A DNA stretch of 64,000 bases, from NCBI GenBank assembly GCA_023137125.1, contig JAGLPW010000098.1, positions 13,751-77,750 on the forward strand, in the 5' to 3' direction. A program made the translations under genes and the position numbers. This document shows, piece after piece, positions 47,533-64,000 of this stretch; the first letter of the stretch is position 1; each line of letters opens with the position of its first letter. A model generated the notes under the pieces. That model had not been told where the DNA came from. It searched no databases and worked only from the letters and a program-made list of their open reading frames with translations. Source of the stretch: Candidatus Cloacimonadota bacterium (GTDB lineage Bacteria; Cloacimonadota; Cloacimonadia; Cloacimonadales; TCS61).

Positions 47533-50500
47533 CTATTTTAGCAAGATCATTTTCCTTGTGGATGTATAATGTCCAGAACGCATTTTGTGAAAGTAAACTC
47601 CGGATGAAACATTTCTACCGCTGTCATTTTTTCCATTCCAAACTACATTATGAACACTGGCATTCATCTGTTCATCTACTAATTTCTTAACAAGCTGACC
47701 TTTGATGTTGTAGATATTGAGCGAAATCTTAGAATTCTCTTTGAGAGAATAACTTATTGTCGTTGTTGGGTTGAAAGGATTCGGGTAATTATGGTGTAAA
47801 CTTGTATGCAAAGGAATAAGAACATTATCTGAATCCAGAAGGTCGTTCTCTACTATTTCGGAAGGTGCAGAAGTTCCGCTTTCATAAACTGCTGTCACAT
47901 AGTATTTATAATTTCCGCTTGGTGAATTTATTTCGGAGTAATAAGTATTTTCCGTTGTCTGAATTTCAATGAAATCACCTGCATTATAACTTCGGAATAT
48001 CTTGTAATTCAACACATCGGTGTTGGGAGAATCCCAATTCAGACTAAAATTATTTCCCGAAACTGTCAGAGCTAAATTCTCCGGTGGTTCAAAATAGTTG
48101 AGTGTTGTATCGAAGGTTACGGTTTCTCCTGCATTTATTTCAAATGTGTTGGAGATTGTCTCATAACCTTCTAACAAAAATTCTACTGTGTGCGTACCAA
48201 CAGGTAACGGCAAAAAATACTCACCGGTCTCATTCGGAGTTCCGGCAAAAGTAGAAGAAACAATCTGAACATCAGACAATTCACCCGTTCCGTTTAGAAG
48301 TTCAACAGTTCCAGACAAAAAACCATAACTTGGTAATTGATCACCAGTTAATAGGATATTATCAATATTCCAGTTATGAATAGATGTCCAACCTCCCTCT
48401 ATATAATAGAAAGCAAATTGAAATTCATTAGATCCCACATCTTCGTTATCAATTGTCATATCTATTACAACAGGAACAGGATAGGCTAAGTTATTTACAG
48501 GAAGGTCATCAACAATATGCCAGTTACCGAAATTACTTCTTGTCATTAATTGCAATGTGATATCCGAAGCATAGTTATACAATAAATAAATAAAAGAGAG
48601 ATATAATTCGTTTGCTCCGGCAGTATTAATTACCGGACTTATCAAATGTGCCGTATTACCTGAAAAGGAAGAACCATCTAATTTGATCTCAGGTGATGAT
48701 CCACCCGCTTCTGAAGTATTGCTGATTTCCCAAGGATCATCATTGCCACCTGTTTGTTCTTGAGTCCACCCGAGTGAATTATAATCGGAAAAATCTTCGA
48801 CAAGTAATTGCATTTCTTGTGAAATAACCAGTTGAAATACTCCGGTTTCATTAGAATAATTATCCCCTGATATTGTGTAAGAAAATTCTGCAATATGTCC
48901 TACCGGTGCATTTACAGTAGCTGAAATACTAAATACTGCTGAGAAGTTATATTCTGAGGGGCAATTCCCAGTGTAATATTCAAAGGTATTTAGAACAATA
49001 TATTCATCATTTTCCGAAATCGAGATAGTAGCATTTTCCAATTCATCACCACCGGAGTTGAAAAAGTTTAAAATTAGATCAGTAGTCTCTGCAGGATCAA
49101 GATATTGATTATCACCATCATTTATGATTAATCCTGAGTAGTCTATTACCGGAGAATTTATCGGCAAGTTGAAATGAATTTCAAAATTCTGCAGATCCGT
49201 TTCAATATTCATTGTGATCATTGCCAGATGACCGTCCGGACAGTTTTCTGCAATTTCTATCGAAAAGTCGGAAAGATTTATTCCTGAGCTTCCGGCTAAT
49301 ATCCTGTTATAATCCGATTCATCTTGAATAATAGTGATGTATTCATCAGTGGAAGAAATTTGAGTGTGAATATCGTAAGCGGCTAATGAACCAACATTAT
49401 TTAATACAACATCCAGATCTATAGTCTCACCTACATCGGCTGTTCCGCTGTTATCATCATCGTTAATCGTGATTCCACCGAATAAAAGTTGTGCACCTTG
49501 ATGAGTTAAATGCTCCCCTGTAAAGACAATTGCCATTTCATTTTGCAGGGTCTTAGCCGCAACGGGATATTGATTATTACAAGTATATCCGAGTCCGATC
49601 GTTCCATCCGGATTTTCAATTCCTACAGTAGCATACAATCCGTGATCAACAAAAAAACCGCTGTAAGAACCTACATCGACATTATTTACTTCCAGATATT
49701 GCATTTTTATCACACTGTCACCGAGATAAGTAGGATTTGAATCCACATCATAAAGGATTACCTGAAATGTTTCAGGATCATTATTATACTCATTTATCAT
49801 ATTATCCCATTGAATTATAAATGCATCCAAGGTCGTGTCATATCTATAATAGACATCACCTGTTCTCAGATCATCCCAAAAAACTGCGATAATCGGAGAA
49901 GGACCGGAAGGACCCGGAATATTCCAATTCATAAAAGAAGTGTTGTCGGTGTCTCCCGGAGCTACCCAACCGTTTGAACAAATCGATAATTGATCATAAG
50001 TTTCTCCGTAAAACAGGAATTCTATAGGCAAATTGATGGTTGTGGTTTGCCCTGTATTTCCATTATCATTAAAGTTTAAATTAGTACCTGTGTTGCTGAT
50101 ATCGATCCAATCATATTCCGGAGTTTCAACATATCCTACATCACTGTCGTCATAGCAATAATAACCATATTCGTCGGGTCCAAGCGGATTTTCTACAGAA
50201 ACTTCACCAATTGATAACAGAAATGTTTGAACTTCATCATATCCGGCAGCATCAGTAATTGTAAGCAGCATAGGAATCTGCATTCCTGTGATCAATGATA
50301 AATCAGCGGAAATTGTGAATAGATCTGCTGAATTTTCTACACTTTGTCCCGTATTTATATTTCCGTAATTAGCAAAACCATCAATAATCTCAATTCTATT
50401 GTCAGTGCAAGATAATACACCACTAACAGTATTTCCAGAAACTTGCCCGATATTTTCCAGTGTGATCGTCAGGTTTTTCATATCTCCCGGATCGATAATT

Positions 50501-52860
50501 CCGTTACCTTGAATTTCATAATTATTTACCATCATATTGGGAGCAGATACATTCAAAATAAGATTATCAAACCAAACATTGGAATTATCATCTTCGATCT
50601 CTAATGTAAAAATAATTTCTTGTCCACCATAAACATCTCCATCAACCGTGAAAGCAAAATCATCATTAGCATAAGCCGATCCTCCTGAATTTATCGATCC
50701 GTAATCTGCTGAGTTATTGGTAATATTGATGTCATCAGATTCGCAAGACAGAATAGCACTTACGCCGTTTGCTGTAGTCGTTCCATAATTTTGTAACTCA
50801 ATCCCAAAAGCAATTGTTTCGTTTGAATTAATATATCCATCGTTATTCCCGGCAGAATCATCTATTTGAAAATCTGAATGATTAATAAAAACATCATTTT
50901 CAACTATCTCTATTTCAGAAATATTGGGGATAAAATTATGTTTCGTGACGGTAAGAGTTGCTGTTCCTGTTTCTTCGGGTTCAAACGGAAGTAATACAAA
51001 ACCGTTTTCAGCAGAGAAGGCTGTAGTTTGGATGTCGTTCATAACTATTGTAATCCAAGAGCCGGTAATAGCATCACCGTTTGAATCCGTGACTTGAATT
51101 TCCGTAAAGTTGTTTCCGACATTTATTTCGGAAGGTGCAACAACGTATATTTCTTCGGGAATTGCTGTCCATAGATCCAATCCCGGATCACCCATAAGAT
51201 TGTTCCAATATGAAAACTGTGTAACTTTATTAGCCGGATTTTCGGGATAATTTAAATAGAGATCATTTTTAGCATTTACCAAAGCACCACCGAGATTATA
51301 GATACCTTTGGAAAAAATGCCGTGAAAAATCCCTGCATCGACAATATTATTGAAACAAGTGTGCGTATTAGGTGTAGCAGTCGAGATAGCAGCAATTGCA
51401 CCTTTTGGAACACTGGGTGTACCTGCTCTTAAGAAAGCCTCTGAGTAGGAAGTTTCCGAGGCAAAATTACCTGTATTGCAACTAAGGGATACAGCTATGG
51501 GTAGCATAAAACCGTTGTTCAAACTATTTGTGTTACTGTTATCCCAACCGCTCATTCCTGCAAATCCGCGATAATTGAAATAACTTACACCACCGTTTAT
51601 ACCGCTCGTCATCTGTGAAATCCAAGGTCCCGAATATACTTCTGTGACGTCAAAATCGGGATTGTGCTGTAAGATCATATCTTTGATGAAAATATTTGTA
51701 TCGATACAAGATGTCCCTGAAGTTGTCGGATCACCTACGAGTAATGCTTTTTCATACCACTCGGTCTGATCAAGATATGGCTCTTTCTCGTAATGTAAAA
51801 TTTTACTGACTACAGTTTGTAATTCTAAAATTGAATTGAATGATAATCTGCCAATAAATGCGTCTGCCAGGATGTCATTTCCTTCCAACAATGTATAATA
51901 ATGATCTCCTTCTCCACTATCTACATAACCGGTAGGAATATTAAAGCTACCCGATGCATCACCCACCAGGCAGATGAATTCGGGTTTGTTCTCCCAATTA
52001 TCATATGCATCCTGAATATAACTTTTTATTTGATTTAATGATGTTCCGGTTTCGGCAGTACTTGCTGAGACCACATTAAACCCCTTCTCCCTTTTCCAAT
52101 CTGTGAGATATTCCAAAGTAGAAAGTACTGCTGCATTATTAGGATAGATAAATAAATAACTGGGTTGCTGGAATTCATCGTCACGACTTAAGAATGAATC
52201 GTAGTTTAGTAAACTACTTCGGTAAAGAGGTTCAAATGTTCGTGATTTTTTTCTGTCTGTAGTTTTTATGTTAGTTCCGGGATTGCCGTTCACACTAACC
52301 TCAACTTCTATGTTATTGATCACGTGCAACTCTTCTCTATGAGGATCGTATTGAAAGGCATTTACCGTAACAGCTACAATACGATAATCTCGCATAATTA
52401 CCGGCTCTCCGATCTCTACCTGGCTTTGTGGAAAGGATTGACTTCCATTATAAAAATCTTCATCAATTACAAATTCTCCACGATAAGGATTGCTTTTGGA
52501 ACTAAGCGGTTGCGATGGATAAATTTTTGTGTTAGGTATTACTTGTTCATCAATAGAAGTGATATTGAATGATACTTCACCAACATCAGGAATAGCTATA
52601 AGGCGTGTAAAACGCGGTAAATTCGGCTTCCCCTCTTCAATGAATCTTCCTTCATTTTCATAACTGATTTTGCTGAAAACTTCTTCGTTTTCTATAATCG
52701 TTTCCAGATCATAACCATCTAATTCAAACTGAATTGATGTTTGTGAACGGGAAAGTGAATTGTGGTTAAATAATTGAACGTTATTTTCTACTTCTACCCA
52801 AGCTGCAGAAAGAGATAGAACCAAGAAAATAAGTGCTAGTGTAAATATTAATCTTTTCAT
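47533..52860 (-). CDS. Very large secreted C25-like (gingipain/PorU-type) cysteine peptidase with multiple Ig/FN3-like domains and a T9SS CTD
   Basis: 1775 aa with a signal peptide. The N-terminal third resembles the peptidase C25 layout (EFICLVGDASG...GEGDHYYT; VSLSCNTGNFA as a possible catalytic Cys region). CTD NYPNPFNPTTTISYSL...RKMILLK. The family call is from memory of the motif pattern. Confidence 0.55.
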   Translation of the reverse strand: MKRLIFTLALIFLVLSLSAAWVEVENNVQLFNHNSLSRSQTSIQFELDGYDLETIIENEEVFSKISYENEGRFIEEGKPNLPRFTRLIAIPDVGEVSFNITSIDEQVIPNTKIYPSQPLSSKSNPYRGEFVIDEDFYNGSQSFPQSQVEIGEPVIMRDYRIVAVTVNAFQYDPHREELHVINNIEVEVSVNGNPGTNIKTTDRKKSRTFEPLYRSSLLNYDSFLSRDDEFQQPSYLFIYPNNAAVLSTLEYLTDWKREKGFNVVSASTAETGTSLNQIKSYIQDAYDNWENKPEFICLVGDASGSFNIPTGYVDSGEGDHYYTLLEGNDILADAFIGRLSFNSILELQTVVSKILHYEKEPYLDQTEWYEKALLVGDPTTSGTSCIDTNIFIKDMILQHNPDFDVTEVYSGPWISQMTSGINGGVSYFNYRGFAGMSGWDNSNTNSLNNGFMLPIAVSLSCNTGNFASETSYSEAFLRAGTPSVPKGAIAAISTATPNTHTCFNNIVDAGIFHGIFSKGIYNLGGALVNAKNDLYLNYPENPANKVTQFSYWNNLMGDPGLDLWTAIPEEIYVVAPSEINVGNNFTEIQVTDSNGDAITGSWITIVMNDIQTTAFSAENGFVLLPFEPEETGTATLTVTKHNFIPNISEIEIVENDVFINHSDFQIDDSAGNNDGYINSNETIAFGIELQNYGTTTANGVSAILSCESDDINITNNSADYGSINSGGSAYANDDFAFTVDGDVYGGQEIIFTLEIEDDNSNVWFDNLILNVSAPNMMVNNYEIQGNGIIDPGDMKNLTITLENIGQVSGNTVSGVLSCTDNRIEIIDGFANYGNINTGQSVENSADLFTISADLSLITGMQIPMLLTITDAAGYDEVQTFLLSIGEVSVENPLGPDEYGYYCYDDSDVGYVETPEYDWIDISNTGTNLNFNDNGNTGQTTTINLPIEFLFYGETYDQLSICSNGWVAPGDTDNTSFMNWNIPGPSGPSPIIAVFWDDLRTGDVYYRYDTTLDAFIIQWDNMINEYNNDPETFQVILYDVDSNPTYLGDSVIKMQYLEVNNVDVGSYSGFFVDHGLYATVGIENPDGTIGLGYTCNNQYPVAAKTLQNEMAIVFTGEHLTHQGAQLLFGGITINDDDNSGTADVGETIDLDVVLNNVGSLAAYDIHTQISSTDEYITIIQDESDYNRILAGSSGINLSDFSIEIAENCPDGHLAMITMNIETDLQNFEIHFNLPINSPVIDYSGLIINDGDNQYLDPAETTDLILNFFNSGGDELENATISISENDEYIVLNTFEYYTGNCPSEYNFSAVFSISATVNAPVGHIAEFSYTISGDNYSNETGVFQLVISQEMQLLVEDFSDYNSLGWTQEQTGGNDDPWEISNTSEAGGSSPEIKLDGSSFSGNTAHLISPVINTAGANELYLSFIYLLYNYASDITLQLMTRSNFGNWHIVDDLPVNNLAYPVPVVIDMTIDNEDVGSNEFQFAFYYIEGGWTSIHNWNIDNILLTGDQLPSYGFLSGTVELLNGTGELSDVQIVSSTFAGTPNETGEYFLPLPVGTHTVEFLLEGYETISNTFEINAGETVTFDTTLNYFEPPENLALTVSGNNFSLNWDSPNTDVLNYKIFRSYNAGDFIEIQTTENTYYSEINSPSGNYKYYVTAVYESGTSAPSEIVENDLLDSDNVLIPLHTSLHHNYPNPFNPTTTISYSLKENSKISLNIYNIKGQLVKKLVDEQMNASVHNVVWNGKNDSGRNVSSGVYFHKMRSGHYTSTRKMILLK

Positions 52861-52871
52861 TTCCTCTCACC

Positions 52872-53876
52872 TTATTTCAACAAGATCATCTTCTTAGTGG
52901 AAGTATAAGTGCCTGCTTTTATTTTGTAGAAATAAACTCCTGAAGAAACAGGTTTTTTTTCTTCATCGTCTCCGTTCCAGACAATCTGATGTATTCCTGC
53001 ACCAATTTTTTCATTAACTAACGTCTTAATCTTTTGTCCTTTCAGATTGTAAATGTCAAGATTCACAAACGATGACGTTTGTGCAACCGAAAAGGAAATC
53101 GTAGTCGTCGGGTTGAACGGATTTGGATAGTTACCGATGAGGTCAGTTGAAGGTACTATATCGTTTCCTGCACCAGTTCCTGTGTAAGTAAAATCTATCT
53201 CAATAATTTCGGAAGTACCCTCATCATAAACCGCAGAAACACCTGCCAAGTAGGTTTGTTCATTTACCAGGTCTTCAAATTGAAATTCTGTATCTGTGAT
53301 ATTTTCCAGAAATATTGAATCAAGGTAAATGTCATACCCCGTCAGAACTCTGGAAACAGGAGCATCCCAGGTAAAGAGACCTGTTCCTTCATCTACTGCC
53401 AGATTTTCAGGTGGCAATGTCTGATCAAAAGAAGCGATTGCTTCCGGTACCATATTCAAAGCTTGTTGGTAATAATTACTGCCATACATCAAGATATTGT
53501 TGGCTCCTATAACGATAAAGAAAGGGACATATCCATTTCCAAAATCCCAATAATAATCATCAATTTCAGTAGCAAAAGGCATTGACCAACCAATATCTGA
53601 CCAATCAAACGTGCAAATAAAATATATCTCATCCGGGTTTTGAGTTCCCCACCATGTATTCATAAACGGCGCCGCCGTATAACAGCCACCTCACCAATCT
53701 TCTCCCCAGAAAATTAATATGGCTTTACCAGCCGCTGTAAGTTCATGTATCGAATGATATTCACCATTACTGTCTGTCCATGAATAGTCATCGGTAATTG
53801 GCTCGCCAACTTGCCAAACTGCAAACAATGATATTGTCAACAGCAACATAACGAATACTAATAATTGCTTTTTCAT
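52872..53876 (-). CDS. Thioredoxin-fold (TlpA/ResA-like) protein with an in-frame UGA (probable selenocysteine, UGGC redox motif), an FN3-like domain and a T9SS CTD
   Basis: Tracked ORFs 53691-53876 and 52872-53663 are in the same frame, separated only by a TGA (53691-53693) and 9 sense codons. Merged reading: ...GKAILIFWGEDW-U-GGCYTAAPFMNTWW... Signal peptide at the N-terminus. A SECIS-like hairpin lies downstream of the UGA. Confidence 0.7.
53663..53681 (-). other. SECIS-like stem-loop UAUACGGC-GGC-GCCGUUUA, 13-31 nt after the U of the in-frame UGA
   Basis: Four G:C pairs plus A:U extensions with one U-U mismatch. The apical loop GGC places its Gs at +21/+22. The GC-only 13-mer ACGGCGGCGCCGT stands out in AT-rich DNA. 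Confidence 0.6.
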
Positions 53877-53904
53877 GCTTCACTCCTTTTCATTTTTTTT
53901 CTCC

Positions 53905-55818
53905 TTATTTCATCAAGATCATTTTCTTTGTAGAAGTATATACTCCAGATTTCAATTTGTAAAAATAGATTCCCGAAGAAACAGGTTTGTTGTTTTCATC
54001 ATCTCCATTCCAGACAATCTGATGTATCCCTGCATCCATTTCTTCATTAACCAAAGTCTTGACCTTCTGTCCTTTCAAATTATAGATTATCAGCTCTGTG
54101 CTTTCCGTGTTCTCTGTGGTTAAAGAAAAAGAAATCGTAGTAGTAGGGTTGAACGGATTAGGATAGTTTTTAATCATCTGTATGGCACCTTGTGGCAAGT
54201 TTTCTGATATGCCTACGCCAGAATCACCAAAACCTATAACAGAATACTCTTCCAAAATTGTATTATTGATAGTATCATGATACATCATCCGACCTCCAGC
54301 AAAAACTTCTTCTGTAGAAGGATTAATATCAACACTATTACCCCATTGAGGTCCTATTGCTCCCGGAAAGTTTTCAAATTCTTCATCTATCAAACTCCTC
54401 CAATAAACATCTCCTGTTTCGGCATCCAGCTTTACTGTAATCCAATCTTGCATGGTCGGGAAGATAGGGGGTGGAACTGTATAACTTTGAACAGCATTAT
54501 GGGTTTCTCCAGTTGCAATAACATAACCGGAAGGATCAAAAACCATATCATTGAGCCAATCATTTCCATAAGTATCATTTGGGTCTCCATCAAATTCATA
54601 TACCCAGTCTAATGTTCCGTCAGCAGCATCAAATCTTGCAATACAAAAGTCAACTGATAGACTACCATTGCTGAGAGTTTCGTTTGAAACAAAACCACCA
54701 CCAAAAATTGCATCGCTTGCGTCATCATAAACCAGATACTTACAAATATCAGTTGAGTCAATAAGTCCATTTACCGTAGTACTGACCCATAAAAATTCCC
54801 CATCCTGCGTGTCTATTTGTGCAACTGCAAAATCTTTACCGGTTGTTGATCCGGCCGGTCGTGATAAACCACCTACAAACAGTTCATCACTACTGTTCAT
54901 TGTAAGATTCCATGCCCATAGCGGATTATTATATAAACTTGAGGTTCCATTTGTCCATATGATATTACCATCCGAATCTAATTTTATTACAGAATTTTCT
55001 TCAACACCTACTTCTTCAATAAATTCTCCCTGAACATAAATATTTCCCAGATCATCCGTCTCAACATTTCTGCCACTTCCAAACCGTTCCCCAACTTCTT
55101 TCAACCACAACAGGTCACCATCGCTATTCAGTTTATATATGCCGCAGAATTGATGCGGAAAACCCTGATAATATCTTTGGATAAGCGATACAACAATAAC
55201 ATTGTTGTCGTTGTCCGTTGTAACCCCAAATCCCCAATCGGCAACAGGAAGACTAAAATCCCCTGCAAAATGCCGCGTCCATATAGTATCCTGAGTTGTT
55301 CGATCAAATTTAATGACCATAACATTCTGGCTTGAACCCGGGTAATATGACCGACCGGTAATAACAACATTTTCCTCCTCATCAATAACCATATCATAAG
55401 TTTGTCTGGGAAAATGACCTGAAGTTGTTTGATAAATATTCTTGGTATAATTAACATCTCCGTTGGCTGCGTTAAATTCAATAAAGGTGAGACTTTCATT
55501 ATCTTGTGTGCCCACAGTGAGTACGGTATTATTGCCAGGTTCATAATATACTTCATCACATTGACTCCAATCCGAAGGTAAGTCTGTGTAATGCCATAGG
55601 ATTTCAGGCTCAGTCCGCTCTCTCAATCCATGTGAATTTGTGCTGTTGTTGTGAAGTTTCGTAGTATCTGTTTCATACAATTGACTGTCAGGAATATCTT
55701 GTAAGAAACCGTTTTCATCATATTGCATTTCTGCAAAATCATCCATTCTCCATTGTTGAGCATAAATATTTGCTGTAAACAAAAGAGATACCGCCAAAAT
55801 CAAAATTAAATGTTTCAT
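53905..55818 (-). CDS. Secreted beta-propeller-like protein with a T9SS CTD
   Basis: 637 aa with a signal peptide. Repeated W-anchored blades (IWTRHFAG, LWLKEVG, IWTNGTS, LWVSTTV, DWVYEFDG, YWRSLID). CTD NYPNPFNPTTTISFSL...KKMILMK. Confidence 0.7.
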   Translation of the reverse strand: MKHLILILAVSLLFTANIYAQQWRMDDFAEMQYDENGFLQDIPDSQLYETDTTKLHNNSTNSHGLRERTEPEILWHYTDLPSDWSQCDEVYYEPGNNTVLTVGTQDNESLTFIEFNAANGDVNYTKNIYQTTSGHFPRQTYDMVIDEEENVVITGRSYYPGSSQNVMVIKFDRTTQDTIWTRHFAGDFSLPVADWGFGVTTDNDNNVIVVSLIQRYYQGFPHQFCGIYKLNSDGDLLWLKEVGERFGSGRNVETDDLGNIYVQGEFIEEVGVEENSVIKLDSDGNIIWTNGTSSLYNNPLWAWNLTMNSSDELFVGGLSRPAGSTTGKDFAVAQIDTQDGEFLWVSTTVNGLIDSTDICKYLVYDDASDAIFGGGFVSNETLSNGSLSVDFCIARFDAADGTLDWVYEFDGDPNDTYGNDWLNDMVFDPSGYVIATGETHNAVQSYTVPPPIFPTMQDWITVKLDAETGDVYWRSLIDEEFENFPGAIGPQWGNSVDINPSTEEVFAGGRMMYHDTINNTILEEYSVIGFGDSGVGISENLPQGAIQMIKNYPNPFNPTTTISFSLTTENTESTELIIYNLKGQKVKTLVNEEMDAGIHQIVWNGDDENNKPVSSGIYFYKLKSGVYTSTKKMILMK

Positions 55819-55982
55819 AATTTTTTCCTCCTGTTTTTTTTAATTTTCTTTTCATTACATTTTTTCTGCTTATCTACTGCTATCGATACATTAGATTCCT
55901 TTTTCTTTTTAACATTATCGAATTGCTTTAGCAATAAATCATCATCTTCAATTGATAGGGGAATAATCAATTTATCTCTCAT
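55815..55982 (-). CDS. Possible 55-aa Lys-rich leader ORF, translationally coupled (ATGA overlap) to the 637-aa gene
   Basis: My own translation: MRDKLIIPLSIEDDDLLLKQFDNVKKKKESNVSIAVDKQKKCNEKKIKKNRRKKL. GGAGG RBS 6 nt upstream. The ATG lies 37 nt after the sigma-54 -12 element. Confidence 0.4.
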   Translation of the reverse strand: MRDKLIIPLSIEDDDLLLKQFDNVKKKKESNVSIAVDKQKKCNEKKIKKNRRKKL

Positions 55983-56019
55983 TAAAACCTCCACATTTTT
56001 TTATTTGTAACACTTAGAA

Positions 56020-56035
56020 GCATTTGTTGTGCCAA
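56020..56035 (-). promoter_or_regulatory. Sigma-54 promoter TTGGCACAACAAATGC (minus strand)
   Basis: TGGCAC-N5-ATGC with GG-N10-GC spacing. Same TGGCACA-N4-ATGC form as the sites at 32485 and 63284. Confidence 0.8.
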
Positions 56036-56145
56036 TATGCATCGGAAAGGTTAATGATGAGATAATATGCGTGTAACTTAGTTACCGATAGGCAATTACA
56101 GTTACCTCGAAAATTAATATAGAAATAAAGTAGGATTAAAAATAG

Positions 56146-56257
56146 TCGCAAATATGCGAAAATAAATTGTATAATTTACATAATATATGAGTTATCTTAT
56201 TTAATAGCTTGAGGTTAAAAATATTCGCATGAAATTGTGTGATTCGCAAATATGCGA
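56146..56257. promoter_or_regulatory. Two identical 17-mers TCGCAAATATGCGAAAA (inverted repeat TCGCA-N4-TGCGA) at 56146 and 56244; candidate bEBP enhancer sites
   Basis: Read directly. The copies are 98 bp apart and sit 111 and 209 nt upstream of the sigma-54 promoter, directly downstream of the TPR-bEBP gene. An extra half-site, TTCGCAT, is at 56224. Confidence 0.6.
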
Positions 56258-56318
56258 AAAAAGACGACCTATTCTTTCTCTGATTTACCGGTTATATGAA
56301 TGAAGATATACTTTACAA

Positions 56319-58439
56319 TTATTCAGATATTTTCTTTTTTAATATTCTATAGATTTGAGATTTGTTCAATTTTCCAAGTTCACATGCTTTAGGAATATCT
56401 TGATCAGATACATTTAGTAATTTATTTACATATTTCAAATCCAAATCATCACCCATTTTGGTTTTGAATAATTTATAATCTGACCAATCTATTGGAAACT
56501 CATCAATAGAAGCTGTTTCTGTTTTATGAGCCGCAGCAACAAAAAGCTCAATATGAAGCGTATCTTGTCCGCAGAGCAAAACCGCTTTCTCAATTTCATT
56601 TTCCAATTCACGAATATTACCCTGCCATGGTAGTGAAAGCAGATAATTAAGTGCGTCAGCAGATACTGTTTTGATCTTCTTACTGAATTTTTTATTGTAT
56701 TTTCCGATGAAATGATTCACCAGAGGTGGAATATCAATTTTACGCTCTTTAAGAGCGGGAATTTCTATTTTTATTACATTCAATCTGTAAAACAGATCTT
56801 CCCTGAATTCTGAATTGTCTATCATTTCCTGCAGATCTCTGTGAGTGGCGGATATTATTCTGATCGAAACAGGAACAGGTTTTGTGCTTCCTACCGGTGT
56901 GACAGTTCGTTCCTGAATTACCCGCAGCATTTTGGATTGCAGCGAAAGCGGCATATCTCCAATCTCATCCAAAAAAAGAGTACCGTTGTTCGCCATCTCG
57001 ATCTTTCCCTTTTTATTTTTATCTGCTCCCGTAAAAGCTCCTTTTGCATAGCCAAAAAGTTCACTTTCTAAAAGATGCTCCGGAATTGCTGAGCAATTGA
57101 TTGCAACGAAAGGTGAATTCTTCTTATATTTTCTGTGTATTGCTTTGGCAACAAGTTCTTTCCCGCTTCCCGTTGGTCCTGTTATCATCACATTTACATT
57201 ATGCTCTGCAACCATATTTATCATAGAAAAAACATCATTCATTATTTTACTTCTACCAATAATTTCCGGGAAATCAAACTTTTTATCCGCATTGTCTTCA
57301 ATAAACAGGTTATCTATTTTTTGCATTTGAACATTTGCAATTTTTCGTGCTGTTTCAATGTTCAGAATACTTTCTTTAATTTCAAAATATTTTTTTTGAT
57401 ATTTATAAGCTTTTGCAAAATCATCTAATTTAAAATAGATTTCGTTTGCAACTTTAAAGGTATTCAATTTTATTGTTTTTACATTCAATTCTTCTACTAA
57501 TTCTATTGCTTGATCAATATAACTCAATGCTGTATCAAATTTACCTATATAAAAATAAACTTCTCCGAGATTGCAAAGAATTGGTGACCATGAATACTTA
57601 TCCGATTTATCAATGTACTGCTCTGCTTGCAAAAAATAGGTTAAAGCAGATTCGTATTTTTTTTGAATTATATATATTTCACCAATATTATTTAAAGAAT
57701 ATGCTATGAATTTCTTATGATTTTCTTTTTTGAAAATAGTTAACGCCTTCTGATAATATTGATAAGAAAGATCATAATCTTTTGTGGAAGTGTGTGTTAG
57801 ACCAATATTCAAAAAGACAGAGGCTAGCAATATTTGATCATCATATGTTTCACTAATTTCAAGAGCTTTTTGATGATATTTAATTGCTCTATCATATAAA
57901 CCTACACTATTAAAGTTGTTTCCAATATTGGTAAGTGCGGCAATAATATTACGAGTATTATCTTCCTTCTTAGATTCATTTAATAAATAGAAAAGCGTTT
58001 CCAGTGATTTCTCATAATTTCCTACTTCATCATAAGCTCTTCCGAGATTTAAAGCTGAATTTGTATGGAATTTTTTGTCATCCAAAGTAGAACTTGCATT
58101 GAAACTCAAAGTGAGATATTTTATTGCTTCATCAAAACTATTTGTCCTCATGAAAGTATCACCAACATAATAATAACACTTAATAATATTTGTTTTATCT
58201 CCCAGAAGCTCAAAAATTTTGAGAGCTTGCTTGAATAAGCTGTTAGCTTTTAAGAACTCAGAAAGCTGATGGTAACTTATTCCGAGATCATAATAAAGCT
58301 TTGCTCTTTCGGCATCATCTTCTATCAAACTTATTTGTCCTGAAACTTTTACGGCAAGTTTTAGAGATTCTTTGGGAGAATCTTTTAAATTTTTCTTAAT
58401 TTTCTCTATAGATTTATTAATATCATCTTTCCTTTTCAT
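56319..58439 (-). CDS. Sigma-54-dependent activator with a ~370-aa N-terminal TPR sensor domain
   Basis: 706 aa. TPR repeats throughout the N-terminal half. Walker A GPTGSGKE, YAKGAFTGA, REDLFYRLN, and a C-terminal HTH (IPKACELGKLNKSQIYRILKK). Confidence 0.85.
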   Translation of the reverse strand: MKRKDDINKSIEKIKKNLKDSPKESLKLAVKVSGQISLIEDDAERAKLYYDLGISYHQLSEFLKANSLFKQALKIFELLGDKTNIIKCYYYVGDTFMRTNSFDEAIKYLTLSFNASSTLDDKKFHTNSALNLGRAYDEVGNYEKSLETLFYLLNESKKEDNTRNIIAALTNIGNNFNSVGLYDRAIKYHQKALEISETYDDQILLASVFLNIGLTHTSTKDYDLSYQYYQKALTIFKKENHKKFIAYSLNNIGEIYIIQKKYESALTYFLQAEQYIDKSDKYSWSPILCNLGEVYFYIGKFDTALSYIDQAIELVEELNVKTIKLNTFKVANEIYFKLDDFAKAYKYQKKYFEIKESILNIETARKIANVQMQKIDNLFIEDNADKKFDFPEIIGRSKIMNDVFSMINMVAEHNVNVMITGPTGSGKELVAKAIHRKYKKNSPFVAINCSAIPEHLLESELFGYAKGAFTGADKNKKGKIEMANNGTLFLDEIGDMPLSLQSKMLRVIQERTVTPVGSTKPVPVSIRIISATHRDLQEMIDNSEFREDLFYRLNVIKIEIPALKERKIDIPPLVNHFIGKYNKKFSKKIKTVSADALNYLLSLPWQGNIRELENEIEKAVLLCGQDTLHIELFVAAAHKTETASIDEFPIDWSDYKLFKTKMGDDLDLKYVNKLLNVSDQDIPKACELGKLNKSQIYRILKKKISE

Positions 58440-58521
58440 TTCGACCTCACACTAAACTTACTTCAGTATCAAAATGAGTTATTTTTTTGTCTAATGATTT
58501 TTTATTTCTACATATTAAAGG

Positions 58522-58633
58522 GATTAGAGATTAGGGATTAACTTTATTTTGTAATATTTCTTATTTATAGAATATAGAAAAGAAAAGTGAAATCTATTGC
58601 AAGATTTCACTTTATATTATATCAACTTATTTC
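58522..58633 (-). repeat. Conserved 3' module (heptamers + terminator GTGAAATCT-ATTGCA-AGATTTCAC + last CTD codons), paralogous to about 47384-47497
   Basis: About 5 mismatches over ~112 nt by eye. Terminator hairpin at 58587-58610. Confidence 0.8.
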
Positions 58634-60606
58634 AGAAGAATCATTTTCTTTGTTTGTTCAAGGCTACCTGATTTTAATTTGTAGAAATATAAACCACTGG
58701 AAATAGGTTTTCCGTTTTTATCATCTCCATTCCAGACAACCTGATGTATTCCTATATCCAATTTTTCATTAACTAAAGTTTTAACTTTTTGTCCTCTTAA
58801 ATTATAGATTATCAATTCCGTGTTCTCTGCGCTTTCTGTGGCTAACGAAAAAGAAATGGTTGTTGTCGGATTAAAAGGATTGGGGTAATTGCTGATCAGG
58901 GCTGTGGTTGTAAAAATCTCGTTACCAGCGCTCACGATATTAGGTACAAAATCAATTGTAACCATAACAGATTCACCTTCATCATAAACTGCAACAACAC
59001 CGGCTTCGTAGGTAGTTCCATTTATTAGGTCTGTGAATTGCCATTCCGTATCTATAGTGTTACCTTCCTGCTCGCCATCGAGGTAAACATTATAACCTAT
59101 AGGATCTACTGAAGAAGGAGCATCCCAGGTAAATTGTCCGTTAGCTTCATCTACAGTTAGATTTGTAGGAGGAAATAAGGGAGAACTGATCACGGCACCT
59201 ACTGCATCATCGGCATTTACCATCCCATATCCAGTGTACCTATCCCAACCCGGAGTTGGTTCTTCATCGATAATATCCGTAGTAGTGGAAGTGAGATAGA
59301 ACCTAACTTCTGCCGGTGTGAGGGTAGGATTTTTAGATTTGATAAGTGCTGCAACACCAGCAGCATAGGGAGTAGCACAAGAAGTACCAGCAAAGAGCAT
59401 AAAATAATCTCCTTGAGTAAATCCGCTAACTCCGATAACATCAGTAGTTGGAAGAATTGTTGGAGCAACCAGATCAACAGCATCTCGAGCATCTTGGATA
59501 TCAACACCATAACTCGACCCCCACCACATTTGTCCATCACAAGAAGTAGGACTTTTTCTTTCTGCACAAGGAGAAGCTGCACCCACGGCAATAACATGTT
59601 CATCATTTGCAGGATGAGAAATATATGGTTCATTGAAGTTTTGAGTACACGCCAATAGTGTAACGCCATTATCATAGGCATAAGCAATTGCTGCATCGGC
59701 AGAAGGGTTGGAACCTTGCTGTCCTTCGAATCCAAAACTCATACTGGCGATATCGACCCCATAATCTCCGCAATGCGTTAATGCATTGTTAATAATTGTT
59801 TGAGTTACAGCACCATTATAGGGTGAAATTTTTAAAGGCATGATACTACAGCCTCCTGCTACACCAGAAATACCAATTCCGTTATCTACTGCTGCCGCTG
59901 CTATACCAGCACAACAAGTACCGTGCCCTGCATCCATAAAACTATCATCCATCGGGTCATCATCATTGTCTCCGTAATCATAACCGGGAACACAATTATC
60001 GATCAAATCTTCATGATTGTAATCTACACCTGAATCTATGATAGCTATGATAATGTCGGGATTACCATAGCCTTGATCGTCATCCCAGGCCTCTTCTATA
60101 TGAGAGTCAAATCCAATTACTTGTCCGCTTCCGGGTCCGTTTAGCTCTGTATTATCATGTCCCCAGCAGTCATCAAAGTACGGATCATCGGGTGTAACAG
60201 AAAGATAATATATATATTCCGGATTAGCAAACTCGACATATTCATTATTTTTATAATATTTTATTGCATCCTCAATATCTGTTTTTTCGGGAACAAAGAA
60301 TAGGTACCAGCGAGCAAAACCGGTTTGCTGCTCCCAGACTTTATCATTTACTGGTCTGTGGGCCAGGATTATCTTTGTAACGTCATACTCGACATTCAAG
60401 GCATCTAATGTTTCTAAACCTGTTTGATCGATTTGTTCGTTATTTTGAAGTAATGCATTAATCTTTTCGGAAGCTTCTTCATTCAATTTTACTTTGATCC
60501 GATCGGAAGCATAAAGCTTTCTACCGTGACTGTCCAATATGATTCCTGTTGCAAATATAGAATTTATCAATAAAAATAATATAAGAAAAAATATTAATCT
60601 TTTCAT
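58627..60606 (-). CDS. Secreted S8 subtilisin-family serine peptidase with an FN3-like domain and a T9SS CTD
   Basis: About 659 aa counted from the ATG at 60606 (AGAGGAG RBS). Catalytic triad contexts IAIIDSGVDYNH, HGTCCAGIAAA, GTSCATPYAAGVAAL. CTD NYPNPFNPTTTISFSL...KKMILLK. Confidence 0.85.
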   Translation of the reverse strand: MKRLIFFLILFLLINSIFATGIILDSHGRKLYASDRIKVKLNEEASEKINALLQNNEQIDQTGLETLDALNVEYDVTKIILAHRPVNDKVWEQQTGFARWYLFFVPEKTDIEDAIKYYKNNEYVEFANPEYIYYLSVTPDDPYFDDCWGHDNTELNGPGSGQVIGFDSHIEEAWDDDQGYGNPDIIIAIIDSGVDYNHEDLIDNCVPGYDYGDNDDDPMDDSFMDAGHGTCCAGIAAAAVDNGIGISGVAGGCSIMPLKISPYNGAVTQTIINNALTHCGDYGVDIASMSFGFEGQQGSNPSADAAIAYAYDNGVTLLACTQNFNEPYISHPANDEHVIAVGAASPCAERKSPTSCDGQMWWGSSYGVDIQDARDAVDLVAPTILPTTDVIGVSGFTQGDYFMLFAGTSCATPYAAGVAALIKSKNPTLTPAEVRFYLTSTTTDIIDEEPTPGWDRYTGYGMVNADDAVGAVISSPLFPPTNLTVDEANGQFTWDAPSSVDPIGYNVYLDGEQEGNTIDTEWQFTDLINGTTYEAGVVAVYDEGESVMVTIDFVPNIVSAGNEIFTTTALISNYPNPFNPTTTISFSLATESAENTELIIYNLRGQKVKTLVNEKLDIGIHQVVWNGDDKNGKPISSGLYFYKLKSGSLEQTKKMILLK

Positions 60607-60718
60607 TTGCTCCTCTTTCTTTGTTTTGGAGTAAAACAACCGTGTTGTTTTTACATCAACACGGTTGATACGCTCCATATACTATTTCATCAGGATCTGT
60701 CTTGTGAAATCTCTTTTC

Positions 60719-62683
60719 TTATTTCATCAAGATCATTTTTTTGGTTGAAGTATAACTGCCGTTCTTTAATTTATACAGATACATTCCTGATGAAACAGGT
60801 TGATTATTATCATCCATCCCGTTCCAAACAACATTATGATTTCCTTGAGCAAGTGTACTATGAATTAATGTTTTAATTTTTTGTCCTTTCATGTTGAATA
60901 TTTCAAGATCCACAAACGAGGACGTTTGTGGTACAGAGAAAGATATTAATGTTGTTGGATTGAAAGGATTCGGATAATTCTGTTTCAATGAGAATACTGC
61001 ATTCACGACATTATCATCCGTTCCTACTTCCGATACAAGCGTTATGTTCAATGCATATGGCCCTGTTCCTTCCGGTACTTGTACTTCTTCGATAGTTTGA
61101 GAAATGTATCCATCCAGTGAAAAAGTGACATCATAATATCCAGGTATTATTGCCATTGAATAATCTCCGAGTGTATTCGGATTACCAGTAAATAGATTGC
61201 CGGCACTATCTTCAGCCTCAATTAGAACATCTACAACATTGCCGTAACCACCACTTAAAGTAACAGTACCGTAAAGATCTCCTGTTACATATCCTAGAGT
61301 GAAGTCGATATTACTGGTTGTTTCACCTTCTATTACGACTACATTATAGTTAGTTTGAGAAACATATCCAGCCATAGAAGTGGTTATATTATAAGTTCCC
61401 GGCAAAACTTCCAGTGTGTAATTTCCTGATTCATCAGGATTGGTTAATCCACCACCACCGGTAATTACAACATCTTCCACGTTACCGGCACCATTCAAAG
61501 TAACATTACCTTCAATAAATCCGGGATCTCCGGGTTCACCGTCTTCGATTTCTGCCATATACATATTTAAGTTTCCATCTATACTAATTGTTCCTGTTAA
61601 AAGGTAGTTCCCGGAAAACGTAGGAATAATCTCATTTGCAGTGAGATGCGGACTGTGATCGTACACCCTGTCCCAGACTAATGTTCCTTCAGAATCGGTT
61701 TTGATGATGTATATATCCAGATCAGTATAGCTTGTTCCTGTTATACCTGCTGCTAAAATCCCATCATCAGGTGTAGAGAGTATTGAATTTACAAACTCAA
61801 ATTGAGGAAAACCGAAATAACTTTCCCATAGGAAATTCCCATCAGCATCAGTTCTAACAATATAAGAATCCGCACCGCCAGCTCCGTAAGTATATGTAGC
61901 TCCACCGGCAATCAAATCTCCATTGGCGGCTTCGTTAACTGTTTCAAAAATTTCATCATCCATACCGCCGTAAGCTTGCTCCCAAAGAAATGAACCATCT
62001 GCATCGATCTTAACAAGATATCCGTCAGAGCCGCCGGCACCAAATGATTGAGTCATGCCTGCAATTACATAACTCCCATCCTGCGTTTGAATGATTTCCT
62101 TGCCGTATTCAGCCATCATACCGCCGTAATTTTGTGACCACTCTTCAATTCCTTCGGAGTCGATCTTTAGTAGCCGGATATCAAATCTTTGCATAGGATC
62201 TTCGTTTGAAGGCCCAGCAACGAGATAACCGCCGTCATCAGTAGCTAATATCGAATAACCTACCTGGTCATAAATTACTTCATATCTATAGTCCCATTCA
62301 ATGTTACCTCCCGAGTCCCATTTTATTACTAAGAAATCCTGTCCACCCTCCAGAGTTTGTTTATGTCCGGCTGTAACAAAACCTCCGTCATCTGCTTGAA
62401 CTACAGAATACGCTGTCTCAATATCATAATTATCACCATAAATTTGCGACCAGATAAATTGACCGGTCGAAGTTGTTTTCACCAACGTTGCATTTGGATC
62501 GATAGCAATAAACATTAAGCCTGAAACAACAAAATCCCCTTCGTCGGTTTGCAGTACCGAATACCCATATTCTGCACCTCCTAAATCATGATTTGCATCC
62601 CAGATAATATCTCCGGGATTAGCAAAAACCGCTGTTGTGAGCAGTAAACCTAAAATTACCGCTATGAATAATTTCTTTTTCAT
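60719..62683 (-). CDS. Secreted 7-repeat beta-propeller-like protein with two CarboxypepD_reg-like domains and a T9SS CTD
   Basis: About 654 aa counted from the ATG at 62683 (AGGAGA RBS). Seven W..YGG...DGGY..AG...G..D..LVK.D..G repeats. Two GxVTLxGGxGNVxDVxI...GxYxxxxxPGxYxV domains. CTD ...KKMILMK. Confidence 0.75.
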   Translation of the reverse strand: MKKKLFIAVILGLLLTTAVFANPGDIIWDANHDLGGAEYGYSVLQTDEGDFVVSGLMFIAIDPNATLVKTTSTGQFIWSQIYGDNYDIETAYSVVQADDGGFVTAGHKQTLEGGQDFLVIKWDSGGNIEWDYRYEVIYDQVGYSILATDDGGYLVAGPSNEDPMQRFDIRLLKIDSEGIEEWSQNYGGMMAEYGKEIIQTQDGSYVIAGMTQSFGAGGSDGYLVKIDADGSFLWEQAYGGMDDEIFETVNEAANGDLIAGGATYTYGAGGADSYIVRTDADGNFLWESYFGFPQFEFVNSILSTPDDGILAAGITGTSYTDLDIYIIKTDSEGTLVWDRVYDHSPHLTANEIIPTFSGNYLLTGTISIDGNLNMYMAEIEDGEPGDPGFIEGNVTLNGAGNVEDVVITGGGGLTNPDESGNYTLEVLPGTYNITTSMAGYVSQTNYNVVVIEGETTSNIDFTLGYVTGDLYGTVTLSGGYGNVVDVLIEAEDSAGNLFTGNPNTLGDYSMAIIPGYYDVTFSLDGYISQTIEEVQVPEGTGPYALNITLVSEVGTDDNVVNAVFSLKQNYPNPFNPTTLISFSVPQTSSFVDLEIFNMKGQKIKTLIHSTLAQGNHNVVWNGMDDNNQPVSSGMYLYKLKNGSYTSTKKMILMK

Positions 62684-62820
62684 CTTTTCTCCTGTTTTCA
62701 TCTTTTCCTCCAATTTTTTTGCCACAGAGATACGAAGATTGTAGAGATTTTCTCTTTTAATTCCCTTAATCTATGAAATCTGTGAGCCGTTTTTTTAATT
62801 AACATATTCATACTCCTTAA

Positions 62821-63093
62821 TTATAAAAGAAGTGTTCTCTTCGGTGAAATGTAACTTCCGTTAGTTATTTGATAATAGTATATGCCGTTCAGAACTTTAT
62901 TTCCTGAATTATCTGTTCCGTCCCATTTCATATTATGCTCACCCGATTTTATCTTTTCGTTGAGAATTGTTTTGATCAGCTCATTATCAAAATTGTAGAT
63001 CTGAACCTTGGTTTTATATTTTTCCGTTTTTGAGAAAAATAAAATGTTTATCCAATTTTCAATCGGTTCCGGCATACTCCAATGTACTCTCAT
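62821..63093 (-). CDS. Orphan 90-aa protein consisting essentially of a degenerate T9SS/FlgD-Ig-like CTD, without a signal peptide
   Basis: Starts at the ATG at 63093 (GGTGGAG RBS). INILFFSKTEKYKTKVQIYNFDNELIKTILNEKIKSGEHNMKWDGTDNSGNKVLNGIYYYQI...KRTLLL aligns with the CTDs of its neighbours. Confidence 0.5.
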   Translation of the reverse strand: MRVHWSMPEPIENWINILFFSKTEKYKTKVQIYNFDNELIKTILNEKIKSGEHNMKWDGTDNSGNKVLNGIYYYQITNGSYISPKRTLLL

Positions 63094-63283
63094 TTTTTTT
63101 CTCCACCTTTTACACACTTCTATTTTTTTTGAGGTAGGATTTATTCCCCATAAGAACCACAAATCAATCGGTTCGTTTGGAGAACCAACCCTACCATTAA
63201 TAACGAACCAGTTCTCATTGTATTACACCCAGACAAGACGCCACTACATGCAAAAACTTATGCTCGTATGGTGATGATAATCA

Positions 63284-63299
63284 GCATTTGCTGTGCCAA
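63284..63299 (-). promoter_or_regulatory. Sigma-54 promoter TTGGCACAGCAAATGC (minus strand)
   Basis: TGGCAC-N5-ATGC with GG-N10-GC spacing. A leader of about 190 nt precedes the ATG at 63093. Confidence 0.75.
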
Positions 63300-63432
63300 A
63301 GATAATGAAGTGATGTTTTCTCATTTTACAATCGTCATGTAAGTCTGATAAAAATATGAAGTTAAGAAATGATATATTTTTTATTTATTGTGTTTTCAGT
63401 TAAAATAAAAATCTAATTCTGACCACGAAAAA

Positions 63433-63550
63433 GAAACATATTTGTTTCAGACTATAAATAATTTAATTTCTTTTCGGTGTTAATTTACTGTATTCAAATT
63501 AGTTATGCTTGGTAGTTTCTGTTTTGTTTCTTTAGAAACAAAAATGTTTC
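63433..63550. promoter_or_regulatory. Palindromes GAAACA-TATT-TGTTTC (63433-63448) and TGTTTC-TTTA-GAAACA-AAAA-TGTTTC (63525-63550); candidate bEBP enhancer sites
   Basis: Read directly. The GAAACA-N4-TGTTTC copies are 102 bp apart and sit 134 and 236 nt upstream of the promoter at 63284, directly downstream of the second TPR-type bEBP gene. Confidence 0.55.
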
Positions 63551-63604
63551 ATTTTGAACTACATACCTTTATATCTGCAAAATCTGCGTTATTAGTGCTT
63601 TGTT

Positions 63605-64000
63605 TTATGTCTTTTCTTTCTTCAGAAGTCTGTAGATCTGTGCTCGTTCCAAACCACCGTTCTTGCTCGCTTCTTGAACATTATTGCCGGTTGAGATAAG
63701 AAGTTCTTTCACATAAGCAGCATCGAGTTTATCGACAATCCCATTTTTATAGGATTTATATTCCAGCCATTTTATCGGAAGACCTTCAAAAATATTCTCA
63801 GATTCTTTGTGTGATACATCCGTAAAAAGCTCAATATGAAGCATATCTTGTCCGCAAAACAAAACCGCTTTTTCAATTTCGTTTTCCAATTCACGAACAT
63901 TTCCCTGCCACGAAAGTGAGAGCAAATAATTAAGAGCATCTATAGAAACACTTCTGATCTTCTTATTGAATTTTTTATTGTATTTTCTGATAAAATGATT
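63605..64000 (-). CDS. Sigma-54-dependent activator, C-terminal part only (gene continues beyond the window); paralog of 56319-58439
   Basis: NHFIRKYNKKFNKKIRSVSIDALNYLLSLSWQGNVRELENEIEKAVLFCGQD... is collinear with the C-terminus of the 706-aa bEBP. The HTH differs (VQEASKNGGLERAQIYRLLKK). Confidence 0.8.
   Translation of the reverse strand, partial: NHFIRKYNKKFNKKIRSVSIDALNYLLSLSWQGNVRELENEIEKAVLFCGQDMLHIELFTDVSHKESENIFEGLPIKWLEYKSYKNGIVDKLDAAYVKELLISTGNNVQEASKNGGLERAQIYRLLKKEKT

Follow-up and report, generated by a model that had tools for sequence, protein, structure and literature searches.

Cloacimonadota are an uncultured phylum that is important in anaerobic digesters and sediments. 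We analyzed 64,000 nucleotides of DNA from a Candidatus Cloacimonadota bacterium (assembly GCA_023137125.1, contig JAGLPW010000098.1, positions 13,751 to 77,750 of the forward strand); this whole stretch is called the window and coordinates refer to it unless noted otherwise. The window contains two paralogous genes, bEBP1 and bEBP2, that are predicted to encode bacterial enhancer-binding proteins (bEBPs). Each is followed by two palindromes, a -24/-12 promoter sequence, and an operon whose products carry type IX secretion system (T9SS) C-terminal domains (CTDs). We call these two units module 1 and module 2. An activator combined with upstream sites and a sigma-54 promoter is a textbook design.

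Organization of the two modules

All of the relevant genes are on the minus strand. Module 2 starts at the end of the window with the last 131 codons of bEBP2 (63608 to 64000), which encode the AAA+ lid (AAA_lid_14 in Pfam), a linker, and a predicted Fis-type helix-turn-helix (HTH) with the recognition helix E-R-A-QIYRLLKK. The protein ends in NVQEASKNGGLERAQIYRLLKKEKT, with its final codon at 63610-63608 and a TAA stop codon at 63607-63605. The distal palindrome, GAAACA-tttt-TGTTTC (GAAACAAAAATGTTTC, 63550-63535), starts 54 nt past this stop codon and is followed by taaa-GAAACA-aaaca-GAAAC. Together they form a predicted enhancer, or upstream activating sequence, at 63515-63551 that is a cluster of three to four half-sites with its center approximately 245 nt upstream of the -24 GG of the promoter. 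The proximal palindrome, GAAACA-aata-TGTTTC (GAAACATATTTGTTTC, 63433-63448), is also a predicted enhancer on the minus strand; it lies 102 bp from the distal palindrome and is centered 143 nt upstream of the same GG. The predicted sigma-54 promoter (TTGGCACAGCAAATGC, 63284-63299, minus strand) reads TGGCAC-N5-ATGC at 63298-63284, with the -24 GG at 63297-63296 and the -12 GC at 63285-63284 in the correct spacing. Both a cognate -24/-12 sequence and upstream sites, as expected for a bEBP, are thus present.

The operon downstream of this promoter contains three genes. The first (62821-63093), with AAAGGTGGAG preceding its ATG at 63093, encodes a 90-aa protein with the N terminus MRVHWSMPEPIENW that consists of a T9SS-type CTD alone (FlgD_ig/Por_Secre_tail). 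This orphan CTD scored 46.7 bits with FlgD_ig (cutoff 27) and a sub-threshold 18.7 bits with Por_Secre_tail. Having no passenger and, by reading, no N-terminal hydrophobic signal, it does not qualify as T9SS type A cargo. A homologue search returned at least three clusters of 90-aa proteins with 72-81% identity to it, and its structure model, which is of low confidence (predicted local distance difference test score, pLDDT, of 58), serves only to show that beta strands are present. The second gene (60719-62725; the gene call starts at 62701) encodes a 668-aa protein with a DUF5122 beta-propeller, a CarboxypepD_reg domain, and a T9SS type A CTD (Por_Secre_tail) that scored 39.3 bits with TIGR04183 (cutoff 23). 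The third (58627-60678; the gene call starts at 60606) encodes an S8 subtilase (Peptidase_S8) with fn3 and a T9SS CTD (Por_Secre_tail) that scored 33.5 bits with PF18962 (cutoff 27). The operon ends at an intrinsic terminator (58584-58613, minus strand; -14.4 kcal/mol, z -3.7) whose 12-bp stem is followed by a T-rich tail and which separates the operon from bEBP1. The window also encodes, at 16814-22924, a 2036-aa SprA-like protein with a SprA_N domain (T9SS translocon SprA/Sov family), which places secretion machinery near the cargo operons.

Module 1 has the same layout. bEBP1 (56319-58439) encodes a 706-aa protein with a tetratricopeptide repeat (TPR) region, Sigma54_activat, lid, and HTH ending in DIPKACELGKLNKSQIYRILKK with the recognition helix N-K-S-QIYRILKK. 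It is followed by a predicted enhancer (56145-56258, minus strand) with two sites 98 bp apart, TTCGCA-tatt-TGCGAA at 56258-56243 and TTCGCA-tatt-TGCGAC at 56160-56145, whose centers are 217 and 119 nt upstream of the -24 GG of a predicted sigma-54 promoter (TGGCACAACAAATGC, 56020-56034, minus strand). The first gene (55815-55982) is a 55-aa open reading frame (ORF) that begins MRDKLIIPLSIEDDD and has a Lys-rich tail; its stop codon overlaps the ATG of a 637-aa propeller+CTD gene. A 61-aa ORF, an fn3+CTD gene, and a gene for a 1775-aa gingipain-like C25 protease with a CTD follow in that order. An initial annotation of the window had described the end of bEBP2, the two palindromes with their 102-bp spacing, the promoter, the operon genes, and the parallel with module 1; we found each of these elements where it had placed them.

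Both palindromes are rare. GAAACA-N4-TGTTTC has just 2 matches in the window, even allowing one mismatch; its core, GAAAC-N6-GTTTC, is expected 0.10 times and two copies occurred in 0 of 100 shuffles. The module 1 motif likewise has only 2 matches (0.07 expected, two copies in 0 of 100 shuffles).

The regulators and their DNA-binding domains

An exact look-up of bEBP1 led to the source contig (ENA ERZ23498471 scaffold_40, 112 kb; L001 here), which extends past position 64000 and contains the complete bEBP2 gene, which the initial annotation had proposed to obtain. The gene (L001:2036-4150) encodes 704 aa with the architecture of bEBP1, that is TPR, Sigma54_activat, lid, and HTH. As had been claimed, the paralogs are collinear; the alignment runs end to end at 59% identity, with 88% in the AAA+ domain, 75% in the lid, 46% in the TPR region, and 38% in the DNA-binding domain, where the recognition helices differ.

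Pfam assigned Sigma54_activat (PF00158, 1.8e-71), TPR_12 (8e-38), and AAA_lid_14 to bEBP1, and PF00158 to full-length bEBP2 as well. The GAFTGA motif (G467 A468 F469 T470 G471 A472) and the Walker A and B sequences GxxGxGKE and LFLDEIGD are invariant in 24 of 24 family sequences, including both paralogs. NCBIfam bEBP models cover residues ~370-700 in both proteins, and no named NCBIfam equivalog reached its cutoff (PrdR 353 versus 795 bits, PrsR TIGR02915 310 versus 502.6, and NtrC 308 versus 559), placing the two outside every named bEBP family. Pfam found no Response_reg domain at the N terminus, where an NtrC-type response regulator would have one; a TPR array occupies this position instead.

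In the AlphaFold model of the last 90 aa of bEBP2, pLDDT exceeds 90 over residues 37-87, which form a long helix, a helix at 67-74, a turn, and a helix at 78-87. The best Foldseek matches of this model were Fis, NtrX, the NtrC4 DNA-binding domain (including the DNA complex 4fth), ZraR, and NtrC1. By predicted fold, the C terminus is a Fis-type HTH. These matches also point to (E)RAQIYRLLKK in bEBP2 and (N)KSQIYRILKK in bEBP1 as the recognition helices. The conserved Arg of this helix would align with R85 of Fis, a base-contacting residue.

Conservation of the palindromes in related loci

The family of TPR-containing bEBPs comprises ~25 clusters at 90% identity, with lengths of 660-711 aa, and all source-named members are attributed to Cloacimonadota. 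From exact look-ups and a metagenome scan with C-terminal alignment we assembled 16 non-redundant related loci. The metagenome scan accounted for 9 loci; the more distant bEBPs of L090, L091, and L092 were kept out of the class analysis. A scan of a genome collection with full-length alignment, seeded with the generic AAA+ peptides LFLDEIGD and LLESELFG, returned 80 unrelated bEBPs. Its sole Cloacimonadota match (L019) is a different, 1423-aa regulator with another HTH and was set aside.

All 16 loci have a -24/-12 site downstream of the regulator gene and, after it, an operon whose products carry T9SS CTDs. The cargo across the family includes S8 and C25 proteases and propeller, PKD, LVIVD, CARDB, and RGI-lyase-like proteins. 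The nearest relatives of bEBP2, P0004 (69% identity) and P0006 (62%), retain the order of regulator, 90-aa orphan CTD, and S8 protease. The first-gene slot is also occupied in L094, L095, and L099.

The positions of the sites are also conserved. Measured upstream from the -24 GG, the centers of the sites in the 16 loci fall at 116-143 nt (proximal) and 217-245 nt (distal), and like sites are 98-103 bp apart. This spacing was taken from the positions of the class motifs because an automatic pick sometimes falls on a neighboring inverted half-site pair. The proximal distances group near 141, 131, and 120 nt, roughly one helical turn apart, with L100 (116 nt) as an exception. It is the distance to the promoter and not the distance to the stop codon of the regulator gene that is constant; L088 has ~190 extra bp before its distal site.

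Footprint alignment of five loci with E-R-A regulators (51-69% identical to bEBP2) revealed no conserved intergenic DNA other than the palindromes and the promoter. The conserved elements are TGAAAC-N6-GTTTCA, present twice, and TTGGCA(C/T)-N..-TGCT. The distal copy, together with an adjoining GAAACA or diverged (GCAAC/GCAAT) half-site, recurs in L084, L085, L094, L099, and L100. The initial annotation had given the motif as GAAACA-N4-TGTTTC. This sequence is indeed present twice in module 2, but the sixth position of the hexamer varies among orthologues, whose conserved core is TGAAAC-N6-GTTTCA. Absence of the palindromes upstream of orthologous operons had been named as a finding that would count against the annotation, and they are present there.

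In L097 (P0008, ~8100-8133), the reading frame of the regulator runs through the distal palindrome, where GAGACAAAATTGTCTC encodes ...ETKLSL..., giving the protein a 16-residue C-terminal extension. This is an apparent loss of the stop codon over a conserved DNA site.

Co-variation of the recognition helix and the half-site

The half-site of the 16-bp palindromes tracks the three residues ahead of Q-I-Y-R at the start of the recognition helix. Regulators with E-R-A are paired with GAAAC in five independent loci (bEBP2, L084/L085, L094, L099, and L100). Those with N-K-S are paired with TCGCA (bEBP1, L087, L088/L093, and, on one strand only, L098 with GTCACA-N4-TGCGAC). For D-R-A the half-site is GAGAC, with two perfect copies in L097 and GAGACA half-sites at -141/-244 in L103. 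D-R-T is paired with GTGAC (L086/L095), G-R-T or A-R-T with GACAC (L101, and degenerate in L102), and P-R-S with GTTACT-N4-AGTAAC (L089).

We scored each class motif, allowing up to one mismatch, in the -280 to -90 region of every locus. Matches occurred only under a locus's own class with none off the diagonal, and shuffled regions gave 0.0013 matches per region and motif. Neither module has the palindrome class of the other in its own intergenic region, even at two mismatches. GAGAC was also predicted for P0005, which belongs to a second, independent D-R-A lineage. This was a partial success: the sites were at -141/-244 as predicted, and they are asymmetric (GAGACA/GCGACA with TGCTTC). The comparison of helices and palindromes across relatives that the initial annotation had called for thus revealed co-variation, and its suggestion that the regulator and its site were duplicated and then diverged together is supported by the class-matched palindromes of the 16 loci.

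The same positions vary in the wider family. When 1.84 billion representatives were searched with a profile built on the last 90 residues, 29 clusters were retrieved at E <= 1e-10, and in these Q-I-Y-R is near-invariant. The residues that flank the conserved Arg form 18 different triplets in these 29 clusters, the pattern expected of specificity-determining positions. The wider family includes TPR-GAF-AAA+ forms and Ser/Thr-kinase-TPR-(GAF)-AAA+ fusions of ~1400 aa.

In a neighbor-joining tree, E-R-A occurs in three separate clades and bEBP1 is sister to the clade that holds bEBP2. The distribution suggests that the E-R-A/GAAAC state is probably ancestral, and the N-K-S/TCGCA state of bEBP1 looks derived. 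Both paralogs have closer orthologues in other genomes than they have in one another. Together with their 59% identity and their placement in the tree, this indicates that the duplication is old and predates the divergence of several genomes.

Proposed regulation and its alternatives

We propose, with a probability of roughly 0.8, that module 2 is a complete and self-contained sigma-54 unit in which bEBP2 switches on the T9SS cargo operon via the palindromes, and that bEBP1 does likewise via its own sites. In this proposal bEBP2 would be a cytoplasmic enhancer-binding protein that combines a TPR sensor with a GAFTGA-bearing AAA+ domain and a Fis-type HTH. The two TGAAAC-N6-GTTTCA palindromes ~143 and 245 nt upstream of the -24 GG would be its binding sites, most likely occupied by dimers. 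A signal at the TPR domain would lead to assembly of the AAA+ domains, looping to the promoter, and ATP-driven opening of the sigma-54 closed complex. The output would be the orphan CTD, the propeller protein, and the S8 protease, with transcription continuing up to the strong terminator. Module 1 would act in the same way via TTCGCA-N4-TGCGAA to drive its propeller protein, fn3 protein, and gingipain-like C25 protease. The recognition helix would set site choice mainly through its three N-terminal residues, which are E-R-A for bEBP2 and N-K-S for bEBP1. The differing helix residues and sites suggest that the two regulators address different promoters.

Several observations weigh against this proposal. 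Binding and oligomeric state are predictions from sequence, and so are sigma-54 dependence, the activating signal, and the functional insulation of the modules. The Pfam HTH_8 model was sub-threshold for the last 41 residues of bEBP2 (E 0.011, 15.9 versus 22 bits) and had no match in bEBP1, and a sequence search of the PDB with the C-terminal profile gave nothing relevant, so the HTH assignment rests on the predicted fold. No rpoN gene is found in the window or in L001; that the organism has sigma-54 is implied by the four bEBP genes of the window. The sigma-54 consensus is not enriched window-wide (4 sites with up to one mismatch, 1.9 expected), and the weight of the promoter call comes from its position and its conservation in related loci rather than from the consensus match. 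Sites are degenerate or asymmetric in L102, L103, L086 (proximal), and L098 (distal). Most specificity classes besides E-R-A and N-K-S rest on one or two loci, and two of the E-R-A loci, L094 and L100, come from the same sample. A genome may contain several E-R-A regulators, in which case paralogs would not always be insulated at the level of DNA. Finally, the paralogs remain very similar in their AAA+ and lid domains.

This last point bears on an alternative that we regard as unlikely but not negligible: the modules would not be insulated, and the paralogs would form mixed oligomers or co-activate each other's promoters as one integrated switch. The 88% and 75% identity of the AAA+ and lid domains is compatible with this, and hetero-oligomers of paralogous bEBPs are documented for VnfA1/VnfA3/AnfA, HrpR/S, FleQ/T, and RedR1/2 (PMC9542535). 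However, each intergenic region has only its own palindrome class, and the TPR sensors (46%) and DNA-binding domains (38%) have strongly diverged. A strong terminator also stands between the two operons, and in other genomes the paralogs occur singly beside their own operon.

The palindromes could instead be operators of another factor encoded elsewhere, such as a repressor, with the adjacent bEBP acting from other sites. Inverted repeats of 16 bp would suit many dimeric HTH proteins, and their binding by the bEBPs is itself a prediction. We consider this quite improbable because, across at least five classes, a different recognition helix in the adjacent regulator comes with a different half-site, without off-diagonal matches. 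Moreover, ~-120 to -245 from a sigma-54 promoter is the position of an enhancer and not of a repressor operator overlapping the promoter, and the footprint alignment contains no other conserved element.

It is very improbable that the palindromes are terminators or other RNA hairpins of the upstream regulator gene. They do start 54 nt past the bEBP2 stop codon and could form stems of 6-9 bp, and a simple terminator scan flagged the proximal palindrome of module 1 (56159-56146). Yet little stability is predicted for the hairpins (-4.4 kcal/mol, z -0.9 for the proximal palindrome and z -0.76 for the distal region) when compared with the -14.4 kcal/mol and z -3.7 of the real terminator, and with only 2 of 6 positions G/C the arms are unlike those of an intrinsic terminator. 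There are two copies ~100 bp apart, and it is from the downstream promoter, not from the stop codon, that they keep a fixed distance. What is conserved among loci with regulators 51-69% identical to bEBP2 is the palindrome sequence and not mere pairing, with no compensatory changes.

A chance origin of the palindromes and the promoter-like site in AT-rich intergenic DNA, which the 34% G+C of the window and the lack of sigma-54 consensus enrichment might suggest, is refuted by the two exact copies of each motif where 0.10 (module 2) or 0.07 (module 1) were expected and by the recurrence of palindromes and promoter at the same positions in 16 loci.

First genes of the operons and other features of the window

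The first ORF after the sigma-54 promoter encodes, in nine loci, a small protein with the N-terminal motif M-x3-(W/L)-x2-P-x3-(D/E)(D/E). It is found in the window at 63093-62824 and 55982-55815 and in L084, L086, L087, L088, L094, L097, L099, and L100; examples are MRVHWSMPEPIENW, MREQWNMPEPIDDM, MKKNWVMPILDEKV, MINKWLEPVFEEEL, and MRDKLIIPLSIEDDD. The motif is followed by either a stand-alone T9SS CTD (~90 aa) or a Lys-rich tail (55-57 aa), and in L097 it forms an in-frame fusion with the cargo, preceding the cargo's signal peptide. L089 and L098 have no such motif ORF as their first gene. In the G-R-T/A-R-T clade (L101 and L102), the first gene encodes a stand-alone receiver domain instead. 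The product of the first gene, the signal-less CTD in module 2 or the 55-aa peptide in module 1, might conceivably serve in the cytoplasm as a ligand of the TPR sensor in the same module's regulator, an idea that we hold to be distinctly unlikely. If it were true, each cargo operon's transcription would be under feedback from the operon's own product or from the load on secretion, and such a secretion-coupled sigma-54 circuit is undescribed for type IX secretion.

The 5' leader of module 2 (63094-63272, minus strand) is unusually long at ~180 nt and contains a hairpin at 63190-63166. Leaders in other loci with an identified first ORF are 29-79 nt, with 50 nt in L094, the closest orthologue. 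An Rfam scan of 55700-64000, which includes this leader, found no credible RNA family. Upstream of bEBP2 in L001 are genes for a TetR protein, a nitroreductase, and a ferredoxin, followed by a terminator-like hairpin.

The 3' ends of the two operons share a 116-nt non-coding block (58519-58634 after the S8 protease gene and 47381-47496 after the C25 protease gene) that is 95% identical and holds the same terminator with a 12-bp stem (AAAGTGAAATCT-N6-AGATTTCACTTT) as well as GATTAGG/GATGAGG heptamer repeats. Among 103 loci compared, none outside the contigs of this organism has the block. The block is far more alike (95%) than the regulators are (59%), which suggests gene conversion or a dispersed repeat. 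Within module 1, the three cargo genes have direct DNA repeats as their CTD-coding 3' ends (202 nt, 61-82% identity; 47514-47715, 52853-53054, and 53886-54087).

There is a third sigma-54 module of another type at 28437-32520. It encodes a PDZ-containing histidine kinase (28437-30929) and a receiver-type (Response_reg) bEBP (30942-32294), followed by a palindrome, AGACAC-aa-GTGTCT (32336-32351), CTGGCACAGTTTATGCA (32484-32500), and a signal-peptide gene from 32529. Elsewhere in the window, the gene for a Ser/Thr kinase-AAA_16-TPR protein (41991-45446) precedes that for a 489-aa bEBP containing HTH_8 (45551-47020). Divergent from these two are T9SS-CTD cargo genes at 40094-41716 (beta-helix) and 38547-40046 and a PP2C phosphatase gene at 37686-38480, with a weak -24/-12-like site, TGGCATAACACTAGC, at 41956-41942. 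Kinase-TPR-(GAF)-AAA+ fusions of ~1400 aa that carry the DNA-binding domain type of bEBP1 and bEBP2 occur elsewhere. A protein with a HipA_C kinase-like toxin domain is encoded at 137-1108.

Comparison with known systems and significance

By analogy, the NifA/VnfA/AnfA paralogs of A. vinelandii are the closest functional counterparts of bEBP1 and bEBP2. They are paralogous sigma-54 activators with their own dyad sites; that of VnfA1 is GT(T/A)C-N6-GTAC, usually two per promoter (PMC9542535). As in the modules described here, each paralog has its own set of sigma-54 operons, and the AAA+ core is kept where the sensor and DNA-binding domains have diverged (PMC9542535). The differences are that the A. 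vinelandii proteins have a GAF sensor for metals or redox rather than a TPR array of ~390 aa, their targets are nitrogenases rather than T9SS-secreted proteases, and their sites are adjacent rather than ~100 bp apart. In addition, the A. vinelandii paralogs interact and cross-regulate, whereas bEBP1 and bEBP2 were compared by sequence.

The PEP-CTERM system PrsK/PrsR/PrsT also has a sigma-54 activator with a Fis-type HTH, an upstream motif, a -24/-12 promoter, targets with a C-terminal sorting domain, and a TPR protein (Haft et al. 2006, PMC1569441). However, PrsR is a response regulator that pairs with a histidine kinase, and PrsT is a separate TPR lipoprotein, while bEBP1 and bEBP2 have no receiver and the TPR region is fused to the activator. 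Their match to the PrsR model TIGR02915 (310 versus 502.6 bits) is limited to the AAA+/HTH part, and the sorting signals differ, being PEP-CTERM/exosortase in one case and the T9SS CTD in the other. NtrC, NtrC4, ZraR, NtrX, and Fis provide the structural parallel: the fold of the last 55 residues matches, and in the NtrC family a GAFTGA AAA+ domain is likewise followed by a long helix and an HTH. That family uses inverted repeats 100-250 bp upstream of sigma-54 promoters, which is where binding is predicted here. The absence of a receiver, the sub-threshold HTH_8 score, and the lack of an NCBIfam equivalog at cutoff set bEBP1 and bEBP2 apart from it.

In Porphyromonas gingivalis, the two-component pair PorX/PorY and the extracytoplasmic function sigma factor SigP act on genes for the T9SS machinery. 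This is also dedicated, T9SS-linked transcriptional control within the Fibrobacterota-Chlorobiota-Bacteroidota (FCB) group. By contrast, the modules examined here have sigma-54 sites and TPR-bEBPs that would act locally on single cargo operons.

T9SS components have been reported in Cloacimonadota (PMC11285876). In the one paper library that we searched, no paper ties sigma-54 or bEBPs to T9SS cargo or to Cloacimonadota. The TPR-bEBPs are apparently an undescribed family dedicated to type IX secretion cargo and, as far as the searched literature goes, the modules offer, for this phylum, the first concrete scheme of how T9SS cargo, secreted proteases included, would be regulated. The family is also a natural specificity series in which one scaffold (x-R-x-QIYRL) is paired with at least five half-sites at fixed positions, making the co-evolution of regulator and site after duplication testable by residue swaps. 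Engineering, too, could draw on it for orthogonal sigma-54 switches. Three HTH residues and two or three bases of the half-site would be linked in this family by a natural code that can be read, and with this correspondence of helix and motif regulons could be predicted in metagenome-assembled genomes from sequence alone.

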